Shown here: in pieces, positions 1,401 to 17,127 of the stretch
How positions within the stretch are numbered: the stretch's first letter is position 1
Layout of the letters: every line of letters starts with the position of its first letter
Assembly (NCBI GenBank): GCA_965263355.1
Contig: CBDHHL010000027.1
Span: forward strand, 1 to 26,006
DNA from: Leptolyngbyaceae cyanobacterium
GTDB taxonomy: Bacteria; Cyanobacteriota; Cyanobacteriia; Phormidesmidales; Phormidesmidaceae
Direction: 5' to 3'
DNA: 26,006 nucleotides
The notes under the pieces: generated by a model
What the model was told of the DNA's origin: nothing
The model's input: only the letters and a program-made list of their open reading frames with translations
The model's database searches: none
Translations under genes and position numbers: made by a program

Positions 1401-2052
1401 GCTTAGTTCCTCTCAAGTATTGTTTAGCTTTATTGATTTCCCCGTTAAATAACAGGGCAAAAACATAGTCTTTCTGACTTTCCCTTAACACTTGATATTC
1501 CAAGATATCGGCATATTCCAAGCCAGCAAACGGGGAAACTTCGCGAATTGGGTCTTGTCTAAAAATTCTTGGTCTAGAATATATCTCTGTTTGAATTGTC
1601 CGTTGCCTATTGCTTTTGAACCATAGCTTTCTGACCAGCTCAGTCGCATGAAAATCATAACGGCCTGAGCCAGACTCTATTAACTTTAGCCTTATAAGTG
1701 CATCACGGACCCGCTGATTCATAGGAGTGTGCATAGTCAAGAAACTCTCGAATTCTCTAGCCTGAATATCAGTTAGTAACTCAAACGCTGTTTCGATTAA
1801 TTCAACCTCAGTAAATGGTTCAAGTTTTTTATACTTCATCCATATTTCACGGACTCCAGGGGCAAGCTCATTGTTTTCTATGAGCAATCCAGCCCGACGA
1901 AATGCGCTTAAAACGGCACCTGATCGAGACGGCGGCAGAACATGGCCCCCACCCTGGCAAATCATATTTAAGATCTTGGTTCTAATCTTTCTGGACTGTT
2001 CGTATTTTTCAACTTCGTTCTTAATTTGTTCTAATGTCCATTCAGCCATCAA
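1378..2052 (-). CDS. Hypothetical protein (224 aa)
   Basis: Long ORF coupled to the upstream methylase stop; no motif recognised. Confidence 0.7.
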   Translation of the reverse strand: MMAEWTLEQIKNEVEKYEQSRKIRTKILNMICQGGGHVLPPSRSGAVLSAFRRAGLLIENNELAPGVREIWMKYKKLEPFTEVELIETAFELLTDIQAREFESFLTMHTPMNQRVRDALIRLKLIESGSGRYDFHATELVRKLWFKSNRQRTIQTEIYSRPRIFRQDPIREVSPFAGLEYADILEYQVLRESQKDYVFALLFNGEINKAKQYLRGTKRELSRRN

Positions 2053-3083
2053 ACCGCCAGCTCCAATAAACTTTTTTGCTCATATTTGCCCAACGTAAAA
2101 TCACCCCCGAATTCCCAAAAACCCTCAACAAACTGATCGTCTCGACTATTGCCGTTAATCCCGTTGTTGCCCCCAGTCAAAACGCTAAGAGGTGTTAACC
2201 GCCAATCACGGCCAAATTTATTTATCCGTTCAATCGCCTCACACAATGGGTCTGAAATATAATTAGTCATCACAACCCGTTCAATTCGAGGGTTAGCCAA
2301 CAGCCTTTCTAGCGTGCTAACAATCAAATCAAACAACTCAATTCCCTGTGGGTCACCATGGCAAATGTAAGACGGTGTTAATGCCCCTGTCCCCCGTCGT
2401 CCCGGTCTAGACCCTTTCGGCACCCAATAAGGTGCATCATGCAAAGCGATCGTTTTGCCAGTAAAAGACAGTTCAAAACTATCAATGCAAGCATGAGCGT
2501 CATTAGAAAAGTGAAGCCTCCAATTAGGGCTAAACCAGGGCATCTTATAACCCCAGCCATCATTCAAGGACTCAAGTAACTCTGGCGATAATTGAGGTTC
2601 ATTTTTCACAAACCCAGACTTTTTTTTGAGGCTGGCTACCTTATCTCGACTCTCTTTTACGTTTAATCGCCCCTTAGTATTCGCCCTGAGGCAGCTCATA
2701 AACGTGAACTCGCGAATCAACAGAGATGCGGCAGCAAGTGTTACACAGTCGCTTGTATCCTTAGTATCAACAATAGCTTTAAGGTTGTCATAGACAACCT
2801 TTGGCCCCTTGGAGAGCACTTCTTTAGACCAATTATTAATAGTCTTCTCTACTTGCTGCCTTAGACTGTCATCTTGCCAGCATTTATAAATTACCTGAAC
2901 AACAGGATCTATATCAGCCAAGAAAGCCCGCTTAACAATTCCGTTGCCGAGCATCCAATGACTGAAGTGGCCAGCACAGGCAAAAGGCTCAATGCTGGCA
3001 TCATAAACATAACGCCTATCCCATACAGGATACTTAACGCGATCTTTTTTGCTGCCAGGGGTGGGGAATAAACCTGTTTTCAT
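2049..3083 (-). CDS. DNA adenine methyltransferase, Dam/D12-like, with variant motifs
   Basis: Motif order X-I-II...IV of alpha-class MTases: FPTPGSK, IEPFACAG, LADID, HDAPYW (normally DPPY), VVMTNY. Confidence 0.75.
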   Translation of the reverse strand: MKTGLFPTPGSKKDRVKYPVWDRRYVYDASIEPFACAGHFSHWMLGNGIVKRAFLADIDPVVQVIYKCWQDDSLRQQVEKTINNWSKEVLSKGPKVVYDNLKAIVDTKDTSDCVTLAAASLLIREFTFMSCLRANTKGRLNVKESRDKVASLKKKSGFVKNEPQLSPELLESLNDGWGYKMPWFSPNWRLHFSNDAHACIDSFELSFTGKTIALHDAPYWVPKGSRPGRRGTGALTPSYICHGDPQGIELFDLIVSTLERLLANPRIERVVMTNYISDPLCEAIERINKFGRDWRLTPLSVLTGGNNGINGNSRDDQFVEGFWEFGGDFTLGKYEQKSLLELAV

Positions 3084-3387: not shown

Positions 3388-4569
3388 TTAAATAGCGGCT
3401 GGCTGAGGAGCCTTAGAGTTCTCAGCAATACGAGCCTTGATGCCCGCAACAAAAGAACTTTGAGAAGATTCAGGCAAACGTAAACGACAAATAACTCGCT
3501 TGTTCTTGTTCTTCATCTCTTCAATCCTATCAATAGAAAGGATTGCAGGGGCATCAATGCTTAATTGAGTAGTAGAGCCCAAAAGCACCCGTTTAATATA
3601 AGTATTGCCATTGATCGTCTTCTCAGAGCCATCAACAATGGCATAAATTTCAACCCCATCACCAAACTTGCCCTGAGTCTTTTTGTAACCAACTATCTTA
3701 TATTCAACCTCAGGGCTAAGCTCGGAAAGCTTCATGTAATTGCCTCCCGTCAGCTCAAACTCATGCCCATTGACACTAAGTTTTTTGCCTTCCTTGGAAA
3801 CGGTTAGTTCTTCAGCGAACCAACCATTTTCATCAATAGAAAACTTTGCCCAATCTTCTTTATTGCCTGGTGCGTAAAAAAGCACTGGTTTTTCACCGAT
3901 AGCACCTAAGATAGATCCGTAAAATTCACCTTCTTTGTCTCTCTTGGGAACCCATTTAATATGGGCAAACTCAATATCTGAACCGTCTTCTACATCCCCC
4001 CACTTGATTCTTTCCTCACCTCGCAACAAAAACCCAGTAAGTTTTTCAGGCGTATTTGCCATAGATAAACGAGCACTAACGAGTTTTCGCCCATCTTCAG
4101 AGCGATGCTCATACTGTAAGCGAACAGGGCAAACCAACGCATATCCAGATGGATCTAAAATCAGCGTGTCATCGCCTAAATTAAGCGCGTACAAATCGCT
4201 AGGAAATACAGTTTCATTAGGGATGACAAATCGCTGCTGTCCCCATCTGACACAAATCCCGTCTTCATAAGCGTAAACAGCAGGTGTGGCTAAATAACCG
4301 CCATTATCATTGTTTACAAAAACGCAAGTACAGCCATCTGGATTGTACTCAGTAAAACCCAGCTTGCTGCAAAGCTGGTTAAACGCCTCACGAATATCTT
4401 CCGGCAAACTCTGATCTGGAATGTCAATTTTATCTTCGCTAATCCCAGCACTCAATAACTCTGTCTCAAGGTCCATTAACCTTTGAGTAAGATTGATGTT
4501 TGGTGCAATCGCAGTTGCAGTAGTTTCAACAGCTTGAGTGCTAGAGCCTTTCTTTTGAAATCGGGCCAT
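3388..4569 (-). CDS. Hypothetical beta-rich protein, possibly ssDNA-binding
   Basis: Long ORF (probable start MARFQKK) transcribed divergently from the primase. The C-terminal part (YKIVGYKKTQGKFGDGVEIYAIVDG) looks OB-fold-like; function is inference only. Confidence 0.7.
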   Translation of the reverse strand: MARFQKKGSSTQAVETTATAIAPNINLTQRLMDLETELLSAGISEDKIDIPDQSLPEDIREAFNQLCSKLGFTEYNPDGCTCVFVNNDNGGYLATPAVYAYEDGICVRWGQQRFVIPNETVFPSDLYALNLGDDTLILDPSGYALVCPVRLQYEHRSEDGRKLVSARLSMANTPEKLTGFLLRGEERIKWGDVEDGSDIEFAHIKWVPKRDKEGEFYGSILGAIGEKPVLFYAPGNKEDWAKFSIDENGWFAEELTVSKEGKKLSVNGHEFELTGGNYMKLSELSPEVEYKIVGYKKTQGKFGDGVEIYAIVDGSEKTINGNTYIKRVLLGSTTQLSIDAPAILSIDRIEEMKNKNKRVICRLRLPESSQSSFVAGIKARIAENSKAPQPAAI

Positions 4570-4644
4570 AATAATAAATTCCAATTTTTGAACATCGAGT
4601 TAGGGCAAACGTGGCATCGAACCGCCCTAAACCTTACAAGTACA

Positions 4645-4771: not shown

Positions 4772-7021
4772 ATGAGTGGATTAGGAGCTGATTTTGGATG
4801 GAAATCAATACGCAAGTTTATTCCCGAGCTGCCCGAGCAGCACTATCTAGAAGCCCATCACGTTAGTCATTTAGCAGAAAGCGGTATAAGTCCCAGTGCT
4901 GCCCTAGTAGCTGGCATATTTAGCGCTGATGCTGCCTTAGCTAGAACGCTCACAGGCCACGGTAGAGCCGGTCTGATATTCACTTATTTCACGATTGACG
5001 GCAAAGATGTATATCGATGGGGGGATGATAGCAGGCCATTTTTTAGACTCAGGCCAGACAACCCGCCAAGCCCAAAATGCACATATCTGTCCCCAAAAGG
5101 GGCGCCCCCACGGATTTATTTTCCGAGAGTGGCTAACAAAGTCGATTTTACTAAGCTTTCAGGCCTTAATCTAGCCTTAACAGAAGGCGAGAAAAAAAGC
5201 CTACTGGCAACACTCTGTAATATTCCATGCATAGGGATTGGAGGGGTTTACAGTTACAAGACTGGCGATAGAGACGAATGGGGCAACCGTGCTTTAGGAT
5301 GCCTGGTTGATGAGATTGATCTTAGATCCGCGCAAAACTTAACCATAGTTTTTGATAGCGACATCACCCACAAACATCAGGTTGCTAGGGCCATCAAAGC
5401 ATTGGCTGGAAATTTAATAGAGGCTTATCATCAGCTCGAAATAAATGAGACAGGCTCTAATGAGCGAGTGCCTGCCCGAACACTAGCATTAGCTAAAAAA
5501 ATAAAATATGCGCTGCTCCCAACACGGTTAAAGCTTAGCAATGAAAAAAAGACCAAAAAACTAGGCTTAGATGACGCAATTGTGCTATTAGGCGAGTCCC
5601 CAGTAAAGGAGTTGTTAGCCCACGCATTGCCATTAGTAAAATGCAAGTGGGAGGACAAATCATTAGATACTGAGTGCCTGTTTGCGTCTGAACCGCTGGG
5701 AGACGACGCCCACAAAGATACTCCTATTAATAAACAGCATCATGTTAGAGGGTTAATCAGTTGGCTATCCTTGCATGGGATTTATGCAAATATTCCTGAT
5801 TATTCAAAACGTCAATATTATCCAGAAGGCATCTGGAAAGACGTAGGCGAGGAAGCTTGGAAATTACTTTCCGAACAAATAGCTGACGCTCAATACTGGC
5901 TAAATAGGAAGCGTGCGATCGCGGCGCAAGAACTTAGATTTGTAGAGAACAAGACCCGATTAAGTAAAGACCAATTTGACCAACCGCATCTACTAGGATT
6001 TATTAATGGAGTGCTGGAGCTTAATAAAAAAGAGCTTATTCCACATTCTCCTCAAAATTATATTACTCAGACATTAGGATTTTCATATGACCCTGAAGCC
6101 CAATGTATCCAATGGCTAACCTGGCTAAATTGGATATTCGAAGATGATGAAAAGTGGCCAGAGATTATTCAAGCCCTTATTCGTTGGACGATCACGCCTA
6201 AAGAAAAAGGTCCCTATCCCATTCATATATGGCCTGTTCTAATTGGCCCAGCTGGCATCGGTAAAGGGACATTTTTAAGTGTGTTAACGCAGCTAGTAGG
6301 CGAAGGCAGTTATGCCGCCTGGAATTATCACAACGTGAATGACGCTCGCGGCATGAACAGTATGTCCGGCAAACGAGCTTGTTTTGCAATGGACCTTAAA
6401 GGCGAATTGGGCAGTCAGGCAGTTGGAAATATCAACTCAATCTGTGTCAACGAGCCTCTAGACGTAGAAGCTAAATATAAAGACAAACGAACCGAAGAGT
6501 TCAAAACTGTCTTATGGGCAGCCATGAACCAGCCGATCAAGTCCAGGGCAGCTGACCAAGAAGGACTTAGTAGGCGAGTACTATATATCCCATTTAGCCG
6601 CAAACCCGCCGAGATCGATACTGAGCTGGCCAACAAATTAAAAACTGAGCTACCAGGAATATTTAATTGGGCTTGGGCTATCTCCCTAGATGAAGCAGTG
6701 GAAACACTAAAAACCCACCTCAAGTCTGAGGAGAACATAGCATTACAGCAACGTCACTTGGCAGAGTCAAATACTGTCTACGAATGGATGGAACATCTAG
6801 AACTATCCGTTGCTCAAACTCAGATAATTAGTGTCTGGTACAATCGTTATAAAGAATGGGTACTTAACACAGGCTGCAAACCATTAAAAATGAGAAATTG
6901 GAAAAAATACATCCTTGCCGCCGGGGCCGAAACTCAGAGGAAGACAGGAGAAGGCATCCCGCTAACACTACCTCCCCTAAAAGACGTTGACATTAGAAAA
7001 ATGCTAGGACTATTCAACTGA
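4772..7021 (+). CDS. DUF3854 (TOPRIM-like) + D5_N + SF3 helicase primase-helicase, P4 alpha/D5 family
   Basis: YLSPKG..PRIYFP, LTEGEKKS, IGIGGV, IVFDSD, GLDD (TOPRIM); LGFINGVLEL..PHSPQNYIT (D5_N); Walker A GPAGIGKGT; VEAKYKD, AMNQP, LSRRVLYIPF, ELPGIFNWA; C-terminal winged-helix-like domain. Confidence 0.92.
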   Translation: MSGLGADFGWKSIRKFIPELPEQHYLEAHHVSHLAESGISPSAALVAGIFSADAALARTLTGHGRAGLIFTYFTIDGKDVYRWGDDSRPFFRLRPDNPPSPKCTYLSPKGAPPRIYFPRVANKVDFTKLSGLNLALTEGEKKSLLATLCNIPCIGIGGVYSYKTGDRDEWGNRALGCLVDEIDLRSAQNLTIVFDSDITHKHQVARAIKALAGNLIEAYHQLEINETGSNERVPARTLALAKKIKYALLPTRLKLSNEKKTKKLGLDDAIVLLGESPVKELLAHALPLVKCKWEDKSLDTECLFASEPLGDDAHKDTPINKQHHVRGLISWLSLHGIYANIPDYSKRQYYPEGIWKDVGEEAWKLLSEQIADAQYWLNRKRAIAAQELRFVENKTRLSKDQFDQPHLLGFINGVLELNKKELIPHSPQNYITQTLGFSYDPEAQCIQWLTWLNWIFEDDEKWPEIIQALIRWTITPKEKGPYPIHIWPVLIGPAGIGKGTFLSVLTQLVGEGSYAAWNYHNVNDARGMNSMSGKRACFAMDLKGELGSQAVGNINSICVNEPLDVEAKYKDKRTEEFKTVLWAAMNQPIKSRAADQEGLSRRVLYIPFSRKPAEIDTELANKLKTELPGIFNWAWAISLDEAVETLKTHLKSEENIALQQRHLAESNTVYEWMEHLELSVAQTQIISVWYNRYKEWVLNTGCKPLKMRNWKKYILAAGAETQRKTGEGIPLTLPPLKDVDIRKMLGLFN

Positions 7022-7051
7022 ACTACAAACATCGAAACAGACAACTACACG

Positions 7052-7084
7052 AGCGCTTCAGGCCACCAAACCTGAGGCGCTTTT
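7052..7084 (+). terminator. Intrinsic terminator after the primase-helicase
   Basis: AGCGCTTCAGG-ccaccaaa-CCTGAGGCGCT hairpin (one G-U pair) followed by a T run. Confidence 0.7.
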
Positions 7085-7850
7085 ACTTTGGCCAGTATCG
7101 ACCGCTACAACCAGTCCTAGAGCCAGCAAAACAAAACTGCCGCCGCTTCCCCCCTCACCCTTTCCTAGAACGAGGGGACCTAAGAAAAGCTTAGCGATGT
7201 ATCAAATGACACCAAGTAGGCTGTCTTCATAAAACTCTGGTTGAGTGTGCCAGTTGATAGTGATTTGTAGGATTAGTGGTAGTTAAGCCCAAAAAGTGAT
7301 CAGTTTTTTCACAAAAATCATTAGTAAATCCCTAGGAATTTCACTAAAACTTGAATTTTGAAATCCTTTTATATCAATGGTTTCAGCGATTTTTTTATCG
7401 AAATGGCCATTTTTTGGCTCAAACTTTCTGTTTTCTATGGGAGTGCTCCTTATCTATGCCCTATTAGCCTCTATCTATTTCTAAAACAGAAAGTTTGAAA
7501 TTGAAATATATAAAATATTAGAGTATAGAAAACGCTGCAATGTATATATAGCAAGGGATGCAGCCGACAAAAAGCACTTGAAATAACTATGAAATAACTA
7601 CTGAAAAGCAGTGAATTAGTAGGTGAAACCCAGTGATTTTTTGAATGCTTTTTTGCAGAATCCAGGGGGTTAACGTCTGTTAAATAGAATCTAAGTTTCA
7701 CCCAAAGATTATAGTACTGATGCACTAAAGCTAAAAAGCGCTGAAACCCGCATTCTGTCGTTAAATTTGCTTTTTAGTGTGCCAGTTGCTCTGATTTTTG
7801 CTTTTGAAGGACTCGCTTGCTGGCCTGTCAGTGGCGTTTATTTTTTGTCA
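7085..7850. other. Putative replication origin
   Basis: Longest non-coding stretch, directly after the primase, with an AT-rich core. Direct repeat AGTGTGCCAGTTG (7244-7256, 7776-7788). Inverted repeats 7419-7434/7483-7498 and 7379-7394/7733-7748. A/C-rich to G/T-rich switch across it. Confidence 0.6.
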
Positions 7851-7856
7851 AGTGTC

Positions 7857-7885
7857 TTTACAGGTATGGTTGTGGTTGCTACTAT
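7857..7885 (+). promoter_or_regulatory. Sigma70-type promoter of the helicase operon
   Basis: TTTACA-17 bp-TACTAT, preceded by TGTCAAG as in the 4666-4686 palindrome. Confidence 0.6.
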
Positions 7886-7905
7886 TGTGGTTGTAGAGAT
7901 TTTGG

Positions 7906-9633
7906 GTGATTTGTATGGTTGAGGCGATTCAGTCGTCATTATTGATGGCTACTGGCGATGACGAATCGCCAAAAATAACGTTGACAGGCCAGCAAGAGGT
8001 TCTTAAAGCTGAGGTACTGGAATGGCTAAGGCTTAAGCCTTCTAAGCTTGCTCGTGTGACTGGCTTTGCTGGGACGGGAAAGACCACCGTGATTAAATAT
8101 GTTGTGCAGGCTGCTATTGAAGAGGGGCTTATTAATGGTCCTGTCTGGGCTTGCGCTCCTACTCATCAAGCTAAAGGGGTGATTGAGAACTCGTTGAGGG
8201 GAAGTGCTGTCACTGAGGTGACCACCGCTCATTCATTGCTTGGTTTGCGGCCTAAGACAGTTGAGTTCAAACGAAAGGACCAAGATAAATTAGATGTCCT
8301 TTTAGGCATTAAAGAAGAGCTTAGAAGTACGGATGAATCGGCGTTAATTGATGCTTTGTTGATACGTCGCAACGCTTCAGACGCTGAAGTTCAATCGTTT
8401 GTGCCTAGCGGAAAGCTCAAGGAAGGAATAGAAAAAGTCAGGTTTTTGTTAGTTGATGAATGGTCAATGATCGACAAGCTTCTATATGGGCTTTTTTGCG
8501 AACTAGCGAATGACCCAGTGATGCACCCTGACTTTCAAATTATTTTCTTGGGGGATCCTGCTCAGCTGCCACCTATTGGCGAAACAATTAGCAAGGTTGA
8601 GTCTTTGCCGTCATTCCAAGAGTTAACAGAGGTTGTTCGCTATAAAGGCGCAATTCTTGAATACTGCAATAAGGTCCGTACTGAACGAGATTACAACTGG
8701 CTGCATCAGCGAGTGGAGGAAGATGACACTTTAATGGTTCTGCAAGAGTGGGAAGTCATGCCTCAACTTAAAGAACTGTACGCAGCTGGGGAATCTATCC
8801 GATTTGCTGCAGCGACTAACGCTAGGGTAATGGCCCTTAATTATCAGATTCGCGGCATTCTCAAAGATGGGGATTTGTCTGGACTATTTTACGATCCAGG
8901 GGATGTTGTGTTGACGTTGAATGCTGTTAGCCGTAGCAGTTCATATGCTTATGACGTTGCTTGCGGTGGGAAAAAATCGAAGCTGGAAGAGCACACCAGC
9001 ACACTTTTAGAACTTGGCGACCTATGCGGACCGGGTGCATATGTAAGTCTTGGCACTTCTGGAACAATTCTTACAGACCAGTCATTTGAGATGACATCAA
9101 AGCTTGGTACTAAATTTAGCCGGATGATTTTTCGGTATCGGCGTTATGAGTCAGGGCTACCGTTCTCGGAACGAAAAGCAATATGTTTGCTCAACCCAGC
9201 TCAGTACGACCAATGGCAGCTTGAATGTAAGCAGCTAGCTAGCCGAGCAAAAGTTACTCAGACCCGCAGTCGTAAATCTACAGGTATTAGAGGACAGGAA
9301 GGGGAGCAGGCTAAGGCTGTTTGGGAAGAGTTTGGTTTAAAAAATTGGTGGAAAAAGAAGAACGGCGAACCTTTACAGCAGTATGAATATCAAAAGCTTA
9401 AAACGGGATTGTGGATAGACTACTTTGACTTGGCCAACTTTGCTGATAAGGCCAGTTACAGCTATGTGAGCACTTGCCATCGGCTGCAAGGCGTAACAGT
9501 AGATATTGTCGTGCTTGACATGAAGACTCTTATGTCGAACGCACAAGCAAAATTTGACGAAACTTGGGATCCTCGAAAGCTGCTGTACACCGCAGCTACT
9601 AGGGCACGTAAACAGTTGATTTTTATGTGCTAA
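7906..9633 (+). CDS. SF1B helicase, Dda/RecD-like
   Basis: GFAGTGKTT, ACAPTHQAK, TAHSLL, VDEWSM, GDPAQLPPI, LTEVVRY, TCHRLQGVT, LLYTAATRAR. Confidence 0.92.
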   Translation: MICMVEAIQSSLLMATGDDESPKITLTGQQEVLKAEVLEWLRLKPSKLARVTGFAGTGKTTVIKYVVQAAIEEGLINGPVWACAPTHQAKGVIENSLRGSAVTEVTTAHSLLGLRPKTVEFKRKDQDKLDVLLGIKEELRSTDESALIDALLIRRNASDAEVQSFVPSGKLKEGIEKVRFLLVDEWSMIDKLLYGLFCELANDPVMHPDFQIIFLGDPAQLPPIGETISKVESLPSFQELTEVVRYKGAILEYCNKVRTERDYNWLHQRVEEDDTLMVLQEWEVMPQLKELYAAGESIRFAAATNARVMALNYQIRGILKDGDLSGLFYDPGDVVLTLNAVSRSSSYAYDVACGGKKSKLEEHTSTLLELGDLCGPGAYVSLGTSGTILTDQSFEMTSKLGTKFSRMIFRYRRYESGLPFSERKAICLLNPAQYDQWQLECKQLASRAKVTQTRSRKSTGIRGQEGEQAKAVWEEFGLKNWWKKKNGEPLQQYEYQKLKTGLWIDYFDLANFADKASYSYVSTCHRLQGVTVDIVVLDMKTLMSNAQAKFDETWDPRKLLYTAATRARKQLIFMC

Positions 9634-9704
9634 CTAGTCAAGTTCGTCAATTCACGGTGCATCAATTCAAGTAATTCAAATCAAACAAGAAAAGGCTAAA
9701 AACT

Positions 9705-10544
9705 ATGACCATAAACACTTCCAACGACAATAACGATTCCAATATCGTTCGCAGCTTTAATCAAGTTGATATCTGGCAAAAGCGAGAAGATGGCTATATC
9801 AATCTCAATCAGATGGCTAATGCTACCGGCAAGCGAATTGATCATTGGCTAAAAACCGAGCCCACGAAAGAATTGTTTGATGAGTTTTTAAGACATCAAA
9901 AGTGTCCGTACTTATCTACCCCCTCAGAGGGGGAGTTTTCAGAAAATGCTAGTGATAGCAAGGATATTGAGCCACCTATTAGAACCATCCAAGGCCGTAA
10001 TGGTGGGACATGGGCACACCCTGATATTGCTATTCAATTTGCAATGTGGTGCAGCCCAGCATTTGCCCTGCAAGTTAGCAAATGGGTTCGTACTTATATG
10101 ACTGAAGGCCGATTGGAGGCTGAAGAGTCAATCCCAGCTCATGAACTTAAGTTCATTAAGATGGTTGAGCAAATCGAAGATGTGTTTCCAAAGGACTGCG
10201 CCCAATCCCGAGACCTTAAGCACCGAGCTGCACTAATTTGTTATCCAGAGTATGCATGCGCTCAATTGATTGCAGAAGATAATCGTAAAAAGTACCTTAT
10301 CAAACGAAAGCGTGAATTACAGGCGCGCAGTGTTGAGAACTGGTTGGCTAGCTTAGCTTTGATTAGAAACCAACAAAAACCAATTTCTAAATGGTATCAA
10401 AGCTATAAAGAATGGTGCTTGCAAGAATTCGACATGGTTCCATTGGCCATGTACAAGTGGAAAGCTTATTTGATTGATAATGAATTCGCTCAAGTCCTGA
10501 AAAAAACAGGTGCAGGTATCCCACTAGAAATCTTTCCTGTATAA
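9705..10544 (+). CDS. KilA-N domain protein fused to a primase-type C-terminal winged-helix domain
   Basis: EDGYINLNQMANATGKRIDHWL...GGTWAHPDIAIQFAMWCSPAFALQVSKWV is KilA-N. The last ~70 aa align with the C-terminus of 4772..7021. Confidence 0.9.
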   Translation: MTINTSNDNNDSNIVRSFNQVDIWQKREDGYINLNQMANATGKRIDHWLKTEPTKELFDEFLRHQKCPYLSTPSEGEFSENASDSKDIEPPIRTIQGRNGGTWAHPDIAIQFAMWCSPAFALQVSKWVRTYMTEGRLEAEESIPAHELKFIKMVEQIEDVFPKDCAQSRDLKHRAALICYPEYACAQLIAEDNRKKYLIKRKRELQARSVENWLASLALIRNQQKPISKWYQSYKEWCLQEFDMVPLAMYKWKAYLIDNEFAQVLKKTGAGIPLEIFPV

Positions 10545-10546
10545 CC

Positions 10547-10906
10547 ATGCCTCACCAATTAGAACTACCCTTAACCCGTCGTTCTAAAACCAAATGCACT
10601 GCTTCGCCAAATGCCATCATCCCAGGCTTAGACGCTAGCTTATGCCGCTGTGATTATTGTCTAACTCGTTCTGATGGCATTTGGTGGGTAGATGTTGACC
10701 AACGGCTTGACTGCCTCAATAAGAAAAAGCATAAAATCCCTTACTTAATTGAGGTATACCGTCGCCAAGCTGTTGGTGTGGCCCACGACGACGATACAAA
10801 AGAAACAGAAGCTCAAAATGCGAAACGTAAGCACGCACAATGGGCCGGTCAAAAGTTCAAACAAACTAATAAATCATGTCAGCAACAACAATTACTAGAC
10901 CAGTAA
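10547..10906 (+). CDS. Hypothetical Cys-containing protein (119 aa)
   Basis: Tightly packed in the operon; C..CRCDYC may bind metal. Confidence 0.6.
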   Translation: MPHQLELPLTRRSKTKCTASPNAIIPGLDASLCRCDYCLTRSDGIWWVDVDQRLDCLNKKKHKIPYLIEVYRRQAVGVAHDDDTKETEAQNAKRKHAQWAGQKFKQTNKSCQQQQLLDQ

Positions 10907-12414
10907 CAGAACCAAAGTTCAGCTCTTATCCTTATCCTAAGGAGGGGGCCACAGGTGCCGAGTGGCGAGCTTGGCTAGAAGGAATGGTTGGGGATCTTTG
11001 GCATGACATCGCAGTTGAATTAACCCCCCTATTAAATAATGTGCAAGTTGAGCGATTCCCAGTTGAATTTATCCCAACATTTGCCGAGGTGGGCGGCAGT
11101 GGTTGGGCTCGTCTTGATGAGGGCAGCTGGCAATGCATTTCCCCTGATGACCTGCCTGCAACCATGGTTCTCGATGTTGAATCCATTGAATTGCAAGCAT
11201 TCACGGCAAACGCTGATATAGACGCATGGTTGCCTTGCCTATGCATTTGCTATGGGGCCGATGGTTACTGGTATGCATGGCAAGAGCAAAATCCAATGTA
11301 TCGCTGGACGGAAACTAAGCGGCGTACTATTCCGTTCCCAACTGGTTGCATCATAATCACTCAGAACGGCGCTGCCCATGATTCGCAATTTCTTAGTAGT
11401 TCTTATGCAGAGTATGGACCAGAGCGTTGTCTATTTATAGATGTGATGGCCCTGGCAATGCTTGTCAGAGGCGTGCATAAAGAACAGCGATCGCAGTATG
11501 AGAAGTACAAGGTTGCGATCGCTAATGGTAAGCCTGCTCCCGATTGGGTAACTCAGGCATCCGACATGGATCTGGCCAGCTTAGCTAGTGACGTACTGGG
11601 AATTGAGATTCTGAAAACAGTTGGAGGGGAAGGGCCACAGACGCTGTTTGAATATTGTGCTCAAGATGTCTGGATAACCCTTCGATTGTTTCAAGAACTA
11701 TGGCCACTGGTTGCGAATATCTATTGCCCCAGTCCAGTAATTTTGTATGGCATGGCGGCAACGACTGGGCTTAGATATCCGGTTGGTGATTGGCAAGAAC
11801 TTGTTTCGTATATAGAAACTGAATACGAAAAAGCCAAAAAAATTAAGCCTAGCAAACGAGATTCTAATGATATTGCTCTAGTCAATTGGGGCAAATCACA
11901 TTTGCGTACATTTCGCGATGGATACAGCGTTAACGGCATGACCAATATGGGCTTTAACCCTGCTCACGATGTATCAGGGATGCCCAAAAGCACCATCTGG
12001 AGTCATCACTGGATGATTCGGCAATTTTTAATTACTGGAGTTAGTGATCAGCCGACCACTAGTTACATGCTGTTTGAAGCTAGGGTTCCGATGCCGATTA
12101 TCCCAGGGAATGCATTAGCTAAGACATTAGCCAGCCAGCCGAACATTAAAACGCATTTTGCTAAGCCCCCTGAGCCAGTGAAAGCCAACAAAAAAGCTAA
12201 GGCTGATTGGCTGCAATTAAGACCATTAACCGATGCTATGCATGTCATGATCTGCCTGATTGACTGTTTTTGTGAAGAGTACGAAATTGACGGGTTTCTT
12301 GCAATCCCAGGGCTAGAAACATTGTGGTACGCCGTCGACTCTGCTCAGGAAAAAGAATTTCAAGAATGCATCGCTAAAGCTCAAAGTTTAGTTTACAAAT
12401 TGATGGCTGATTGA
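10876..12414 (+). CDS. DNA polymerase gamma-like protein: intact 3'-5' exonuclease, degenerate polymerase domain
   Basis: GWARL, MVLDVE (ExoI), WYAW, QNGAAHD (ExoII), FIDVMALAMLVRG, YCAQDVW (ExoIII) and CPSPVILYGM follow the POLG/Mip1 order (GWTRY, LVFDVE, WYSW, GHNVSFD, FLDTMSMHMAISG, YCAQDVW, CPHPVTLAGM; recalled from memory). Confidence 0.85.
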   Translation: MSATTITRPVTEPKFSSYPYPKEGATGAEWRAWLEGMVGDLWHDIAVELTPLLNNVQVERFPVEFIPTFAEVGGSGWARLDEGSWQCISPDDLPATMVLDVESIELQAFTANADIDAWLPCLCICYGADGYWYAWQEQNPMYRWTETKRRTIPFPTGCIIITQNGAAHDSQFLSSSYAEYGPERCLFIDVMALAMLVRGVHKEQRSQYEKYKVAIANGKPAPDWVTQASDMDLASLASDVLGIEILKTVGGEGPQTLFEYCAQDVWITLRLFQELWPLVANIYCPSPVILYGMAATTGLRYPVGDWQELVSYIETEYEKAKKIKPSKRDSNDIALVNWGKSHLRTFRDGYSVNGMTNMGFNPAHDVSGMPKSTIWSHHWMIRQFLITGVSDQPTTSYMLFEARVPMPIIPGNALAKTLASQPNIKTHFAKPPEPVKANKKAKADWLQLRPLTDAMHVMICLIDCFCEEYEIDGFLAIPGLETLWYAVDSAQEKEFQECIAKAQSLVYKLMAD

Positions 12415-12490: not shown

Positions 12491-13345
12491 GTGATAGTGA
12501 ACAACCTAATTATTGTTGATACGTCTGTGATCGCCTTCCAAATGTCGGCCCAGATTGACAAGGCAGGCCTAACCGAAACTAATGCTAAAGTTTACGCCTA
12601 CATGGCGGCAGAATGGGTTAATTCACTAGGCTGGATTCCCGCGTTGCAATCAACTGGTAAATGCGTTTGGGCAATTGACTCTAAGCCCTACTGGCGTAAT
12701 CAGCTATTCCCCGATTACAAAGCAGGCCGCAAACCTAAACCCGCATCATTCCATACTGCGATGGAGGGCATATTAAGCAGCAGTGCTTCTTTGATTGATA
12801 TAAAATCACAAGAAGCCGACGACGTAGCCGCTGCTATTGTTCGGCTATGGCTAGATAGCAGCTCAGGATTGATCGATCAAATCTATTTGGCTACCGTTGA
12901 TAGTGACTGGCATGGGTTAGTCCAAAACCCTGATATTTTTTGGTTAAATACTCGCAACCACCCTCCACGCGTTCGAAGTCGAGAAGAGATATTTAATTGG
13001 CTTTGCAGCAAATGGAACCAGCAATCTAAGAAACGTCAGAAATGGTGGGCATTGCCTAGCTATCAATCATTTAGATGTGATGACGTTTGGCGATGGAAGA
13101 TAGCAGTCGGCGATAAAGCCGATAACTTAAGCGATGGTTCAGCAAAATACTTAATTGATTTACTGCGACCTCCCAAACAATTTGATATCCTAGAATCAAA
13201 GGAATCTGTAAATACTATTTACAGAGGAGTAAATTTAGCAAGCAAGCCTGATTTGAGCCTTGCTCATGAATGTAAGCAGGGCATGCTGTCACTAGGGGCA
13301 CTTCCCCCCATCGAAATGATTAGCCTGAAAGTTTTAGTTTCATAG
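12491..13345 (+). CDS. 5'-3' exonuclease / flap endonuclease (T5 D15, T4 RNase H, Pol I N-terminal-like)
   Basis: LIIVD, AIDSKPYWRNQLFPDYKAGRK, EADD, TVDSDW, GDKADNL. Confidence 0.9.
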   Translation: MIVNNLIIVDTSVIAFQMSAQIDKAGLTETNAKVYAYMAAEWVNSLGWIPALQSTGKCVWAIDSKPYWRNQLFPDYKAGRKPKPASFHTAMEGILSSSASLIDIKSQEADDVAAAIVRLWLDSSSGLIDQIYLATVDSDWHGLVQNPDIFWLNTRNHPPRVRSREEIFNWLCSKWNQQSKKRQKWWALPSYQSFRCDDVWRWKIAVGDKADNLSDGSAKYLIDLLRPPKQFDILESKESVNTIYRGVNLASKPDLSLAHECKQGMLSLGALPPIEMISLKVLVS

Positions 13346-14766: not shown

Positions 14767-15000
14767 TTAGCACGAAAAGAAAGACATTCAATGACCCCCA
14801 CCTTAAAGAGGATGGGGGAGTGCCAGGAGTAAGACTGGCGTAACTGCGAATAGGCCATTGAGCAAGATTGCGGTTAACACTTCCAAAGGCTTCTCTACTT
14901 TGGACTCCTGTAAGCCTTTTTACTGAGGCGTAGCTAACGGCTAGACATCTGCAATCTTGTGGCTTAAGAGACCTGTAGTAACTGAGATTATCTCTCAACC
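14767..15000 (+). ncRNA. IsrB omega-RNA with 5' flank-derived guide
   Basis: Structured leader between the left end and isrB (ACTTCCAAAGGCTTCTCTACTTTGGA hairpin; CAAGATTGC/GCAATCTTG long-range stem). The guide is expected from ~14767-14786. Confidence 0.75.
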
Positions 15001-16182
15001 AACTATGTTCAGAATTCCAACACTCAACCCAGACGGTTCACCAGCAATGCCCACTAAGCTCGCCAGAGCTAAAAAGTGGGTAGAGCAAGGTAAAGCAGTT
15101 TGGGTTAAGACCGACCTTCGGATCAAAGCTGTCAGGCTAGTATCCGAACCATCAGGTAGAGCTACCCAGCCAATAGCGGTCGGTATCGATCCGGGAAAAT
15201 TATTCTCCGGCGTAGCCTGTCAGTCTGCTAAAGCAACATTGTTCACAGCTCATCTACTCTTACCCTTCAAGCGGGCAAAAGATCGGATGGAGTCACGGGC
15301 AATGATGCGACGTGGCAGGCGTGGTAGGCGCATTAACCGTAGTTTGCCTTTTGAATTGCGGGCACATCGTCAAAAGCGGTTTGACAACCGTAAGCAAACA
15401 AAAGTGCCTCCCAGTATTCGGGCTAATCGCCAACTTGAACTTAGGGTAGTAACTGAGCTTTGCAAGCTATTCCCTGTTTCAAGAATCGTCTTTGAATACG
15501 TTAAAGCTCGAACTAAGAAAGGTTGCTCGTTCAGCCCGGTACAGGTTGGGCAAAAATGGGCCATCGCTCAATTGGAAAAGCTTGCACCTGTCCGCACTCT
15601 TTACGGGTGGCAGACTGCCACCATGAGAGATCATTTGGGCTTAGAAAAGTCTAAGAACAAAGCGGAGCAATCCCCCCAATCTCATGCCGTTGACGGCATA
15701 GCTTTAGCAGCCAGTGAGTTTGTGGAATATCGCAAATATCACAGCAATGACTCAAGAGGTGCTGACTGGTTTGGCTCGGTCAATATCACGTCAGCTCACT
15801 TTGTAGTCGTTCATCGGCCACCCGTAAGCCGTCGTCAACTCCATTTAATGGTGCCCGCTAAGGGTGGATTAAGGCGGAAGTATGGGGGCACTGTGACTCG
15901 TCACGGGTTTAGAAAAGGCGATTTGGTTATTGCTGAAAAGAAAGGCATCCAATCAATCGGTTGGGTGTCTGGGGATACAAAAAATAAGGTGTCGGTGTCT
16001 GATTTCAACTGGAAGCGAATCGCCCAATTTACCGCGTCTAAAGTCCAGCTTCTCTATCGTTCTACGGGGTTGCTGGTTAATTGCCCACAGAGATTGTCAG
16101 TCAGCAACGCATCGAGCGTAGCAGCCTGACTCTCCTTTCCTCCCCCACTTGAACGAAGATGGGGGTTTCACGGAGTTTTGTG
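14787..16182 (+). mobile_element. Non-autonomous IS200/IS605-superfamily element carrying isrB and omega-RNA
   Basis: Similar subterminal hairpins at both ends: CCCCCACCTTAAAGAGGATGGGGG (~14795) and CCCCCACTTGAACGAAGATGGGGG (16142). No tnpA. ATGA immediately 3' of the right end. Confidence 0.85.
15005..16129 (+). CDS. isrB: IsrB RNA-guided nickase (RRXRR/PLMP, split RuvC, no HNH)
   Basis: PDGSPAMPT (PLMP), VGIDPG (RuvC-I), RAMMRRGRRGRR bridge helix, IVFEYV (RuvC-II), SHAVDG (RuvC-III), GFRKGD. No HNH between RuvC-II and III; 374 aa. Confidence 0.9.
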   Translation: MFRIPTLNPDGSPAMPTKLARAKKWVEQGKAVWVKTDLRIKAVRLVSEPSGRATQPIAVGIDPGKLFSGVACQSAKATLFTAHLLLPFKRAKDRMESRAMMRRGRRGRRINRSLPFELRAHRQKRFDNRKQTKVPPSIRANRQLELRVVTELCKLFPVSRIVFEYVKARTKKGCSFSPVQVGQKWAIAQLEKLAPVRTLYGWQTATMRDHLGLEKSKNKAEQSPQSHAVDGIALAASEFVEYRKYHSNDSRGADWFGSVNITSAHFVVVHRPPVSRRQLHLMVPAKGGLRRKYGGTVTRHGFRKGDLVIAEKKGIQSIGWVSGDTKNKVSVSDFNWKRIAQFTASKVQLLYRSTGLLVNCPQRLSVSNASSVAA

Positions 16183-16945: not shown

Positions 16946-17039
16946 TGGTCCAACGGTTGAATACGTTTACCAAGATTATGCTCAAGCCTTGAGAGAGGCA
17001 AGGGCCGATAATCCAGGGGCGACGGTGACTGTGGTTTGA
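16905..17039 (+). CDS. Small hypothetical protein (44 aa)
   Basis: MKQKLQTFKFK...NPGATVTVV. Its 3' end is duplicated downstream with synonymous changes, which supports coding status. Confidence 0.55.
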   Translation: MKQKLQTFKFKINNGPTVEYVYQDYAQALREARADNPGATVTVV

Positions 17040-17127
17040 AATCTTCCCATGTACGCGTGGGTTTGTCTCCAGGTGCAACAGTGACTGTGGTGAGTAAGAT
17101 TTGAAATCTTCCCATGTACGCGTGGGT
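17035..17127 (+). repeat. Two identical 28-bp direct repeats, 37-bp spacer
   Basis: TTTGAAATCTTCCCATGTACGCGTGGGT at 17035-17062 and 17100-17127. Confidence 0.9.

Follow-up and report, generated by a model that had tools for sequence, protein, structure and literature searches.

The KilA-N protein encoded at 9705-10544 of the 26,006-nucleotide stretch of cyanobacterial DNA analysed here (the window) likely ends in a diverged copy of the C-terminal winged helix of the same phage's own primase-helicase, a relationship that is well supported as homology. The protein is likely an accessory regulator with two DNA-binding domains, both of which would contact DNA, and the window is likely the replication region of a cyanobacterial prophage. 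The features on which the argument turns are as follows.

4772-7021, + strand: primase-helicase, 749 amino acids, with DUF3854, D5_N, SF3 helicase (DUF5906) and a C-terminal winged helix
6743-6979, + strand: likely donor domain, primase residues 658-736 (BLASTP; weak Pox_D5 match)
7022-7905, no strand: non-coding, origin-like stretch with a putative origin function
7906-9633, + strand: Dda/RecD-like superfamily 1 helicase, 575 amino acids (phrog_325, E 2e-59)
9705-10544, + strand: gene for KilA-N domain, helical middle and winged helix, 279 amino acids (P0001)
9774-10103, + strand: KilA-N domain, KilA residues 24-133 (Pfam PF04383, E 1e-25)
10110-10289, + strand: KilA middle region, residues 136-195, helical in a low-confidence model
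10290-10541, + strand: KilA tail, likely copy of the primase C-terminal domain, residues 196-279, predicted winged helix
10547-13345, + strand: genes 3' of KilA, a 119-amino-acid ORF and then two exonuclease genes
10876-12414, + strand: 3'-5' exonuclease-like gene
12491-13345, + strand: 5'-3' exonuclease gene

The KilA-N domain matched PF04383 with 90 bits against a cut-off of 23.8. Relatives of the middle region (residues 136-195) were looked for outside its own lineage and none were found. The tail carries a net charge of +6 and ends without the final 13 residues of the primase, which themselves end in a motif kept in all seven aligned primases.

Homology and predicted fold of the KilA tail

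The original prediction had quoted matching C-terminal motifs for the KilA-N protein and the primase, and both are present in the sequence where they had been placed. BLASTP aligned KilA residues 199-279 with residues 658-736 of the primase-helicase with 29 of 81 positions identical (36%), 54% positive and an E-value of 1e-11; the second-best segment between the two full-length proteins had an E-value of 1.4. The Smith-Waterman score of the tail against its own primase was 128, to be compared with a mean of 26.6, a standard deviation of 4.9 and a maximum of 57 over 500 shuffles. The pairwise alignment is therefore significant and the proposed homology is borne out. An iterated profile of about 98 domains, the KilA tail being part of its seed, scored the tail at 4e-11. 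At the DNA level the longest exact match remaining between the tail and the corresponding coding stretch of the primase was 12 bases, so that the copy is old. In all, 64% of the winged-helix residues differ between the two, and the residues at KilA positions 248, 250 and 251, where the predicted recognition helix begins, differ from those of the primase.

AlphaFold2 modelled KilA residues 196-279 with a pLDDT of 89.3 and a pTM of 0.77, the order being a helix (197-217), a strand, two further helices (227-241 and 249-258) and two strands. Eight of the nine rows in the input alignment were primase tails, and the model consequently leans towards the primase fold. Comparison with 48,161 solved chains gave winged helices as the top matches, with Z-scores of 8.0 to 5.6 and none standing clear; these included cullin WHB (8.0), RFX5 (7.5) and RFX1 (6.2), and the P4 origin-binding domain (PDB 1ka8) was matched with a Z-score of 5.6 and an rmsd of 3.0 over 72 aligned residues. 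The winged-helix label originally given to the tail thus holds by prediction, on the model confidence and on these structural matches, and the tail is best described as a predicted D5/RFX-type winged helix. A model of the whole protein, built from nine near-identical alleles, had a pLDDT of 42 and was discarded for fold searches.

Family-level searches gave less. Pfam Pox_D5 (PF03288) matched the primase tail weakly (E 0.017, 16 bits, cut-off 21.4) and the tails of three primase relatives with 14.8-20.3 bits against the same cut-off; a Pfam scan of the KilA tail returned nothing at an E-value of 10, Pox_D5 included. Searching the sequences of solved structures with a three-row profile gave five weak, unrelated matches. 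Foldseek found no match at E 0.001 in the PDB or among viral models, and its rows are taken as leads: the named top rows among the viral models were phage primases and helicases, and two viral leads were Bro-N and N1R/p28 (KilA-N-type) proteins, the name in each case being that of the whole protein, not of the matching domain.

Origin of the copied domain

The tail is not nearer to unrelated primases, since its own primase came first of 91 distinct primase winged helices with a score of 128, the next being 77. It scored 57 on the primase P0045 (57% identical) and 77 on the primase of the related prophage L001 (48%), and these two primases and the window's own score 214-262 against one another, closer than any of them is to the KilA copy. 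A 21-row, 81-column tree made the copy sister to its own primase with an unstarred support of 92/85, within a subfamily clade that was starred (98/94). The stem of the copy measured 2.26 changes per column, versus 0.19 for the primase. The alternatives in which the own primase groups with P0045 and L001 were not rejected (AU p of 0.098 and 0.147).

Ten residues of the KilA tail are common to its own primase and to at most one of six other primases, each of which gave a matching count of one to three; P0048 was left out of this comparison and one row was a fragment. Six of the ten sit in the predicted recognition helix (helix 3) and wing, parts that contact DNA in RFX as PMC2777425 describes it, a clustering that is not significant (about 0.08, binomial by hand). 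Four are hydrophobic or proline.

The tail was found in three clusters comprising nine sequences. A profile search of 1.84 billion representatives returned ten matches, including one KilA-type protein, five subfamily primases and one primase fragment; the remaining three were P0055, a protein of 234 amino acids that consists of three tandem Pox_D5/RFX winged helices without an enzyme domain, and two repeat proteins taken as noise. Direct scans of IMG/VR and of annotated phages found no relatives of the primase or of the KilA protein, and a metagenome scan gave distant N-terminal matches only. The sample of the subfamily comprised seven other full-length primases, a small number. It is probable that the domain was duplicated locally after the phage lineage had split from its relatives and that the copy then diverged fast.

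Genomic setting and a syntenic prophage

The helicase, KilA, 119-amino-acid ORF and exonuclease genes likely form one operon. The KilA and primase genes had been described as flanking a single intergenic region that would hold the origin. This proved incorrect as a statement of adjacency, because the Dda-like helicase gene at 7906-9633 intervenes and separates 7022-7905 from the KilA gene. The 12 HIP1 sites in the window and its synteny with the prophage L001 favour its reading as the replication region of a cyanobacterial prophage. Virion and integration genes were not recognised within the window.

L001 is a syntenic prophage lying beside host genes in a cyanobacterial MAG. Its gene order is a divergent 400-amino-acid gene, the primase, a non-coding stretch, a Dda-like helicase, a 119-amino-acid gene and two exonucleases, their likeness to the neighbours in the window being judged by eye. 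Genes for a serine recombinase-like protein, tape measure, terminase, portal and major head lie on the same contig. The slot occupied by KilA in the window is filled in L001 by three unrelated small genes, and a search of that genome, from an incomplete MAG, turned up neither a KilA-N match nor another copy of the winged helix. The KilA gene is dispensable in L001.

Several other features of the window were recorded. The 512-amino-acid product of 10876-12414, which is kept in L001, matched a polymerase-type 3'-5' exonuclease alone with no match to a polymerase domain, and no polymerase gene was recognised in the window. A 398-amino-acid gene divergent from the primase (3388-4584, - strand) is also kept in L001 and lacks a Pfam match; from its position and acidic, beta-rich look, one might guess at a single-strand binding or annealing protein. 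The 190-bp gap between this gene and the primase contains a 25-nt direct pair and two small inverted repeats and is a second candidate control site. A 344-amino-acid protein (2049-3083, - strand) shows methyltransferase-like motifs by eye with no Pfam or PHROGs match, and L001 has methyltransferase-like genes in the matching region. In the primase itself, the Walker B strand (residues 535-541) ends without the usual acidic pair, a place at which the aligned relatives vary too. A Lipase class 3 gene (2-775), cut at the window start, lies in this phage-like element. Finally, a 30-nt repeat in two copies 65 bases apart forms a CRISPR-like mini array at 17012-17127, with an RRXRR gene (14957-16129) some 900 bases upstream of it, and the stretches beside the repeats resemble one another; no cas gene was recognised and the array had no Rfam match. 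An Rfam scan of the window named no family, hence no C4/isrK-type RNA.

The non-coding stretch downstream of the primase

The stretch at 7022-7905 contains the following elements.

7051-7082: terminator-like hairpin
7322-7521: core of about 70% A+T
7419-7434 and 7483-7498: perfect 16-bp inverted repeat, reached in 0 of 500 shuffles
7379 and 7739: 10-bp inverted pair
about 7244 and 7776: 13-bp direct pair, reached in 8 of 500 shuffles
7857-7885: promoter-like site

An iteron array was looked for in 7022-7905 and none was found, and the counts of promoters and terminators were not above those of shuffles. Two short ORFs overlap the stretch. The L001 counterpart holds four copies of another 12-mer, and the repeats of the two intergenic regions differ. 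The stretch lies directly 3' of the primase gene, as do PICI origins, which are placed downstream of the primase gene in PMC10111431, and the C-terminal winged helices of the D5 family are described in PMC4889955 as the origin-binding part. We infer that 7022-7905 holds the origin and the promoter of the operon. Since it precedes the helicase, KilA and exonuclease genes, a protein bound there could affect transcription as well as initiation.

Variation among alleles

The KilA reading frame was intact in all nine alleles, whose C-terminal parts were 94-98% identical. Variation was concentrated in the loop of the KilA-N domain (residues 49-100), which was swapped among alleles and variable at 42 of 52 positions; the middle region (136-195) was nearly invariant (2 of 60), and the tail varied at 10 of 84 positions, mostly by conservative changes, compared with 3 of 95 in seven primase tails. 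At 9850-10005 the loop occurs as three allele types between near-identical flanks, and a joint from 9815 to 10001 was seen in contigs of all three runs.

In this lineage 13 contigs carried the KilA gene, versus at least 21 for the primase. Contigs of three runs from one study diverge from the window at 7918-7920, and one run rejoins it at 10474. These loose contig ends make the helicase-KilA block appear exchangeable in the population, and suggest that an alternative cassette replaces the helicase and most of the KilA gene (7920-10474) in part of it.

Second copies in other phages and exchange of tails

Second copies of a primase winged helix were sought up to 10 kb either side of the primase. 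The 54 viral loci with DUF3854 primases contained one, in L033. Two more, in L183 and L248, came from the best 80 of 548 viral loci bearing P4-like primases; a winged helix was detectable in 78 of the 80, and grouping at 60% identity gave 38 groups. The three are unrelated phages.

L033, 943-1407: 154 amino acids, 29% identical over 94 amino acids to its own primase (E 3e-9), in an early regulatory cluster
L183, 5857-6348: 163 amino acids, with an N-terminus without a named domain
L248, 1374-2183: copy fused to a Rha domain

Among the 91 winged helices the own primase ranked first for the L033 copy (score 100, next 88) and the L183 copy (93, next 64) and 23rd for the Rha-fused copy of L248, so that, counting the window's, the own primase is the best match for three of the four copies. 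A large quick tree, which contained no starred sets, supported the pairing with the own primase for L183 and the window and left it unsupported for L033 and L248, the L033 copy lying nearer to L067 and L071.

Several matches were not accepted as second copies. The 372-amino-acid match in L070 proved false, being a sugar dehydratase-like gene, and was excluded from later seeds; the short matches in L185, L213 and L260 are helicase genes split or cut by a contig end. The L033 copy also matched six Moraxella phages, where the one match inspected falls in a 559-amino-acid helicase-type gene. Searching annotated phages with two primase tails gave primase genes only (3 and 10 records). Across 401 cyanobacterial genomes Pox_D5 matched 22 times, in 21 of them, and every matching frame was at least 424 amino acids long.

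This tail was borne by none of the KilA proteins at 28 cyanobacterial KilA-N loci (25 of 401 genomes), nor at the best 80 of 463 viral KilA-N loci, many of which are near-identical. The sampled proteins bear ParB, ANT-like and unnamed tails. The KilA-N gene of L074 has taken up, as a fusion, a copy of the neighbouring ParB gene's N-terminal part (1399-2511 and 110-1309), and this copy retains 67% protein identity to its neighbour and 85% DNA identity over 153 bases. C-terminal domains are described as being exchanged among KilA-N, Rha and Bro-N proteins (PMC10111431, PMC6145125). What is seen in the window is likely a local domain capture by a Bro-network regulator.

Possible roles of the two-domain protein

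The likeliest single reading, which we hold tentatively, is that the two-headed KilA-N/winged-helix protein reads primase-related sites in 7022-7905 and damps initiation or transcription of the operon. Its tail would be a copy of the winged helix in the primase-helicase that the phage itself encodes, and the protein would then bind DNA related to the primase's sites within this stretch. Once bound, it would damp the start of replication, or transcription of the replication operon that houses its gene, and the two heads would lend it an avidity that a lone winged helix lacks. With neither a helicase nor a primase part, it could not start replication itself. The origin reading is weakened by the missing iteron array, by the absence of the KilA gene from L001 and by the extent of change in the domain; the long stem of the copy together with the altered residues 248, 250 and 251 means that its DNA specificity may have moved. 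It is weakened further by pRN1, whose winged helix bound DNA weakly and without sequence preference according to PMC2777425.

Close behind comes a second tentative reading in which the protein is a product of the shuffling typical of the Bro network: the winged helix of a neighbour would have been captured, its specificity changed, and the protein would regulate transcription or act as an antirepressor-like factor, unconnected with the origin. The C-terminal swaps already cited and the varied tails of the cyanobacterial KilA-N proteins sampled are consistent with this, as are the long stem of the copy and the L248 protein, a Rha domain with a non-cognate winged helix. The ParB fusion of L074 shows that KilA-N genes capture their neighbours generally, which, like the L248 copy, counts against the origin reading. 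Closeness to the neighbour follows from the capture mechanism alone, and the cognate closeness of the tail therefore cannot separate the two readings. Against shuffling without an origin tie stand the ten lineage-specific residues, which persist though the DNA similarity has gone, the position of the gene within the replication operon, and the best score on the own primase for three of the four copies.

A third and rather unlikely reading is that of a Cnr-like partner, in which the copy would pair with the winged helix of the helicase and block or redirect its origin binding, the KilA-N domain serving as a tether to DNA. Copy number is controlled by cnr in P4, as PMC8628076 describes, and predicted helices 1 and 3 together hold four of the ten cognate-specific residues; helix 1, however, is the least conserved part of the tail relative to the primase. 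It is improbable that a related element other than this phage supplied the domain from its primase, or that the domain now rides along with no function: the alternative trees that were not rejected, the apparent exchangeability of the helicase-KilA block and the small number of primases sampled speak for it, but the own primase was clearly the best of 91 and all nine alleles were intact, with the C-terminal part conserved while the KilA-N loop was swapped.

Comparison with known systems

The protein resembles the Bro-network regulators in having KilA-N as its first domain, a linker and a second predicted DNA-binding domain, in being an accessory gene and in its size of 270-280 amino acids. It differs in that the second domain is a D5/RFX-type winged helix from a replicative primase-helicase, rather than KilA-C, ANT and the like. 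Bro-network regulators (KilA-N, Bro-N, Rha, AntA) with swapped C-terminal domains were reportedly described by Iyer, Koonin and Aravind in 2002. Pox_D5 does not figure among the ten Pfam models that PMC10111431 gives for the network. That study rejected segments found mainly outside Bro proteins, a rule by which a primase-derived segment could have been removed; the 144 groups in its Supplementary File 2 may nonetheless hold a KilA-N and winged-helix fusion. A literature search covering titles and the starts of abstracts, with most subscription papers outside its reach, found no description of a fusion of KilA-N to a primase winged helix.

The tail shares its predicted fold with the P4 alpha origin-binding domain (1ka8), and its donor is likewise a D5-family primase-helicase; unlike P4 alpha, the window's enzyme has a DUF3854 primase domain, and no iteron array is visible at 7022-7905. 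The winged helix of pRN1 ORF904 also follows an SF3 helicase and has an origin candidate downstream of its gene, whereas a second copy is not reported for it as far as PMC2777425 describes that system. To our knowledge, P4 Cnr is the only known regulator of D5-type replicons. It was reportedly proposed by Yeo et al. in 2002 as a winged-helix partner of the origin-binding domain, and for this reason the earlier description of the KilA protein as an undescribed replication-control device is an overstatement. Both fit the concept of a small protein without enzymatic activity that is related to a winged helix or acts on one; the KilA protein differs in that the cognate domain is recognisably copied in it and joined to KilA-N. 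In the account of PMC8628076, P4 cnr lies directly upstream of the primase gene and Cnr is near-universal in its family (90% of P4-like elements); the KilA gene is 2.7 kb downstream, behind a helicase gene. Membership of the Cnr family was rejected on this position and on the absence of the gene from L001, and Pfam and PHROGs scans of the tail named no Cnr family.

Conclusions

Proteins of the KilA-N, Bro-N and Rha types are common in phages, and for most of them no target is known. A tail that derives from the cognate replication initiator offers a concrete, testable one, namely the origin and the helicase, and the Bro network is seen to draw new domains from neighbouring genes, from a primase here and from ParB in L074. 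The KilA protein may tune replication or the replication genes, and, if the copy acts at the origin, it would add an extra layer of control to D5-type replicons. It is conceivable, if doubtful, that phages repeatedly copy the origin-reading winged helix of their own primase onto KilA-N, Rha or small helix-turn-helix carriers, keeping the cognate surface for competition at the origin or pairing with the helicase. Were this so, widespread and polyphyletic Cnr-like controllers would be hidden among the 'antirepressors', regulators of lysis and lysogeny would be linked to the start of replication, and each copy would also indicate the origin sequence of its phage.
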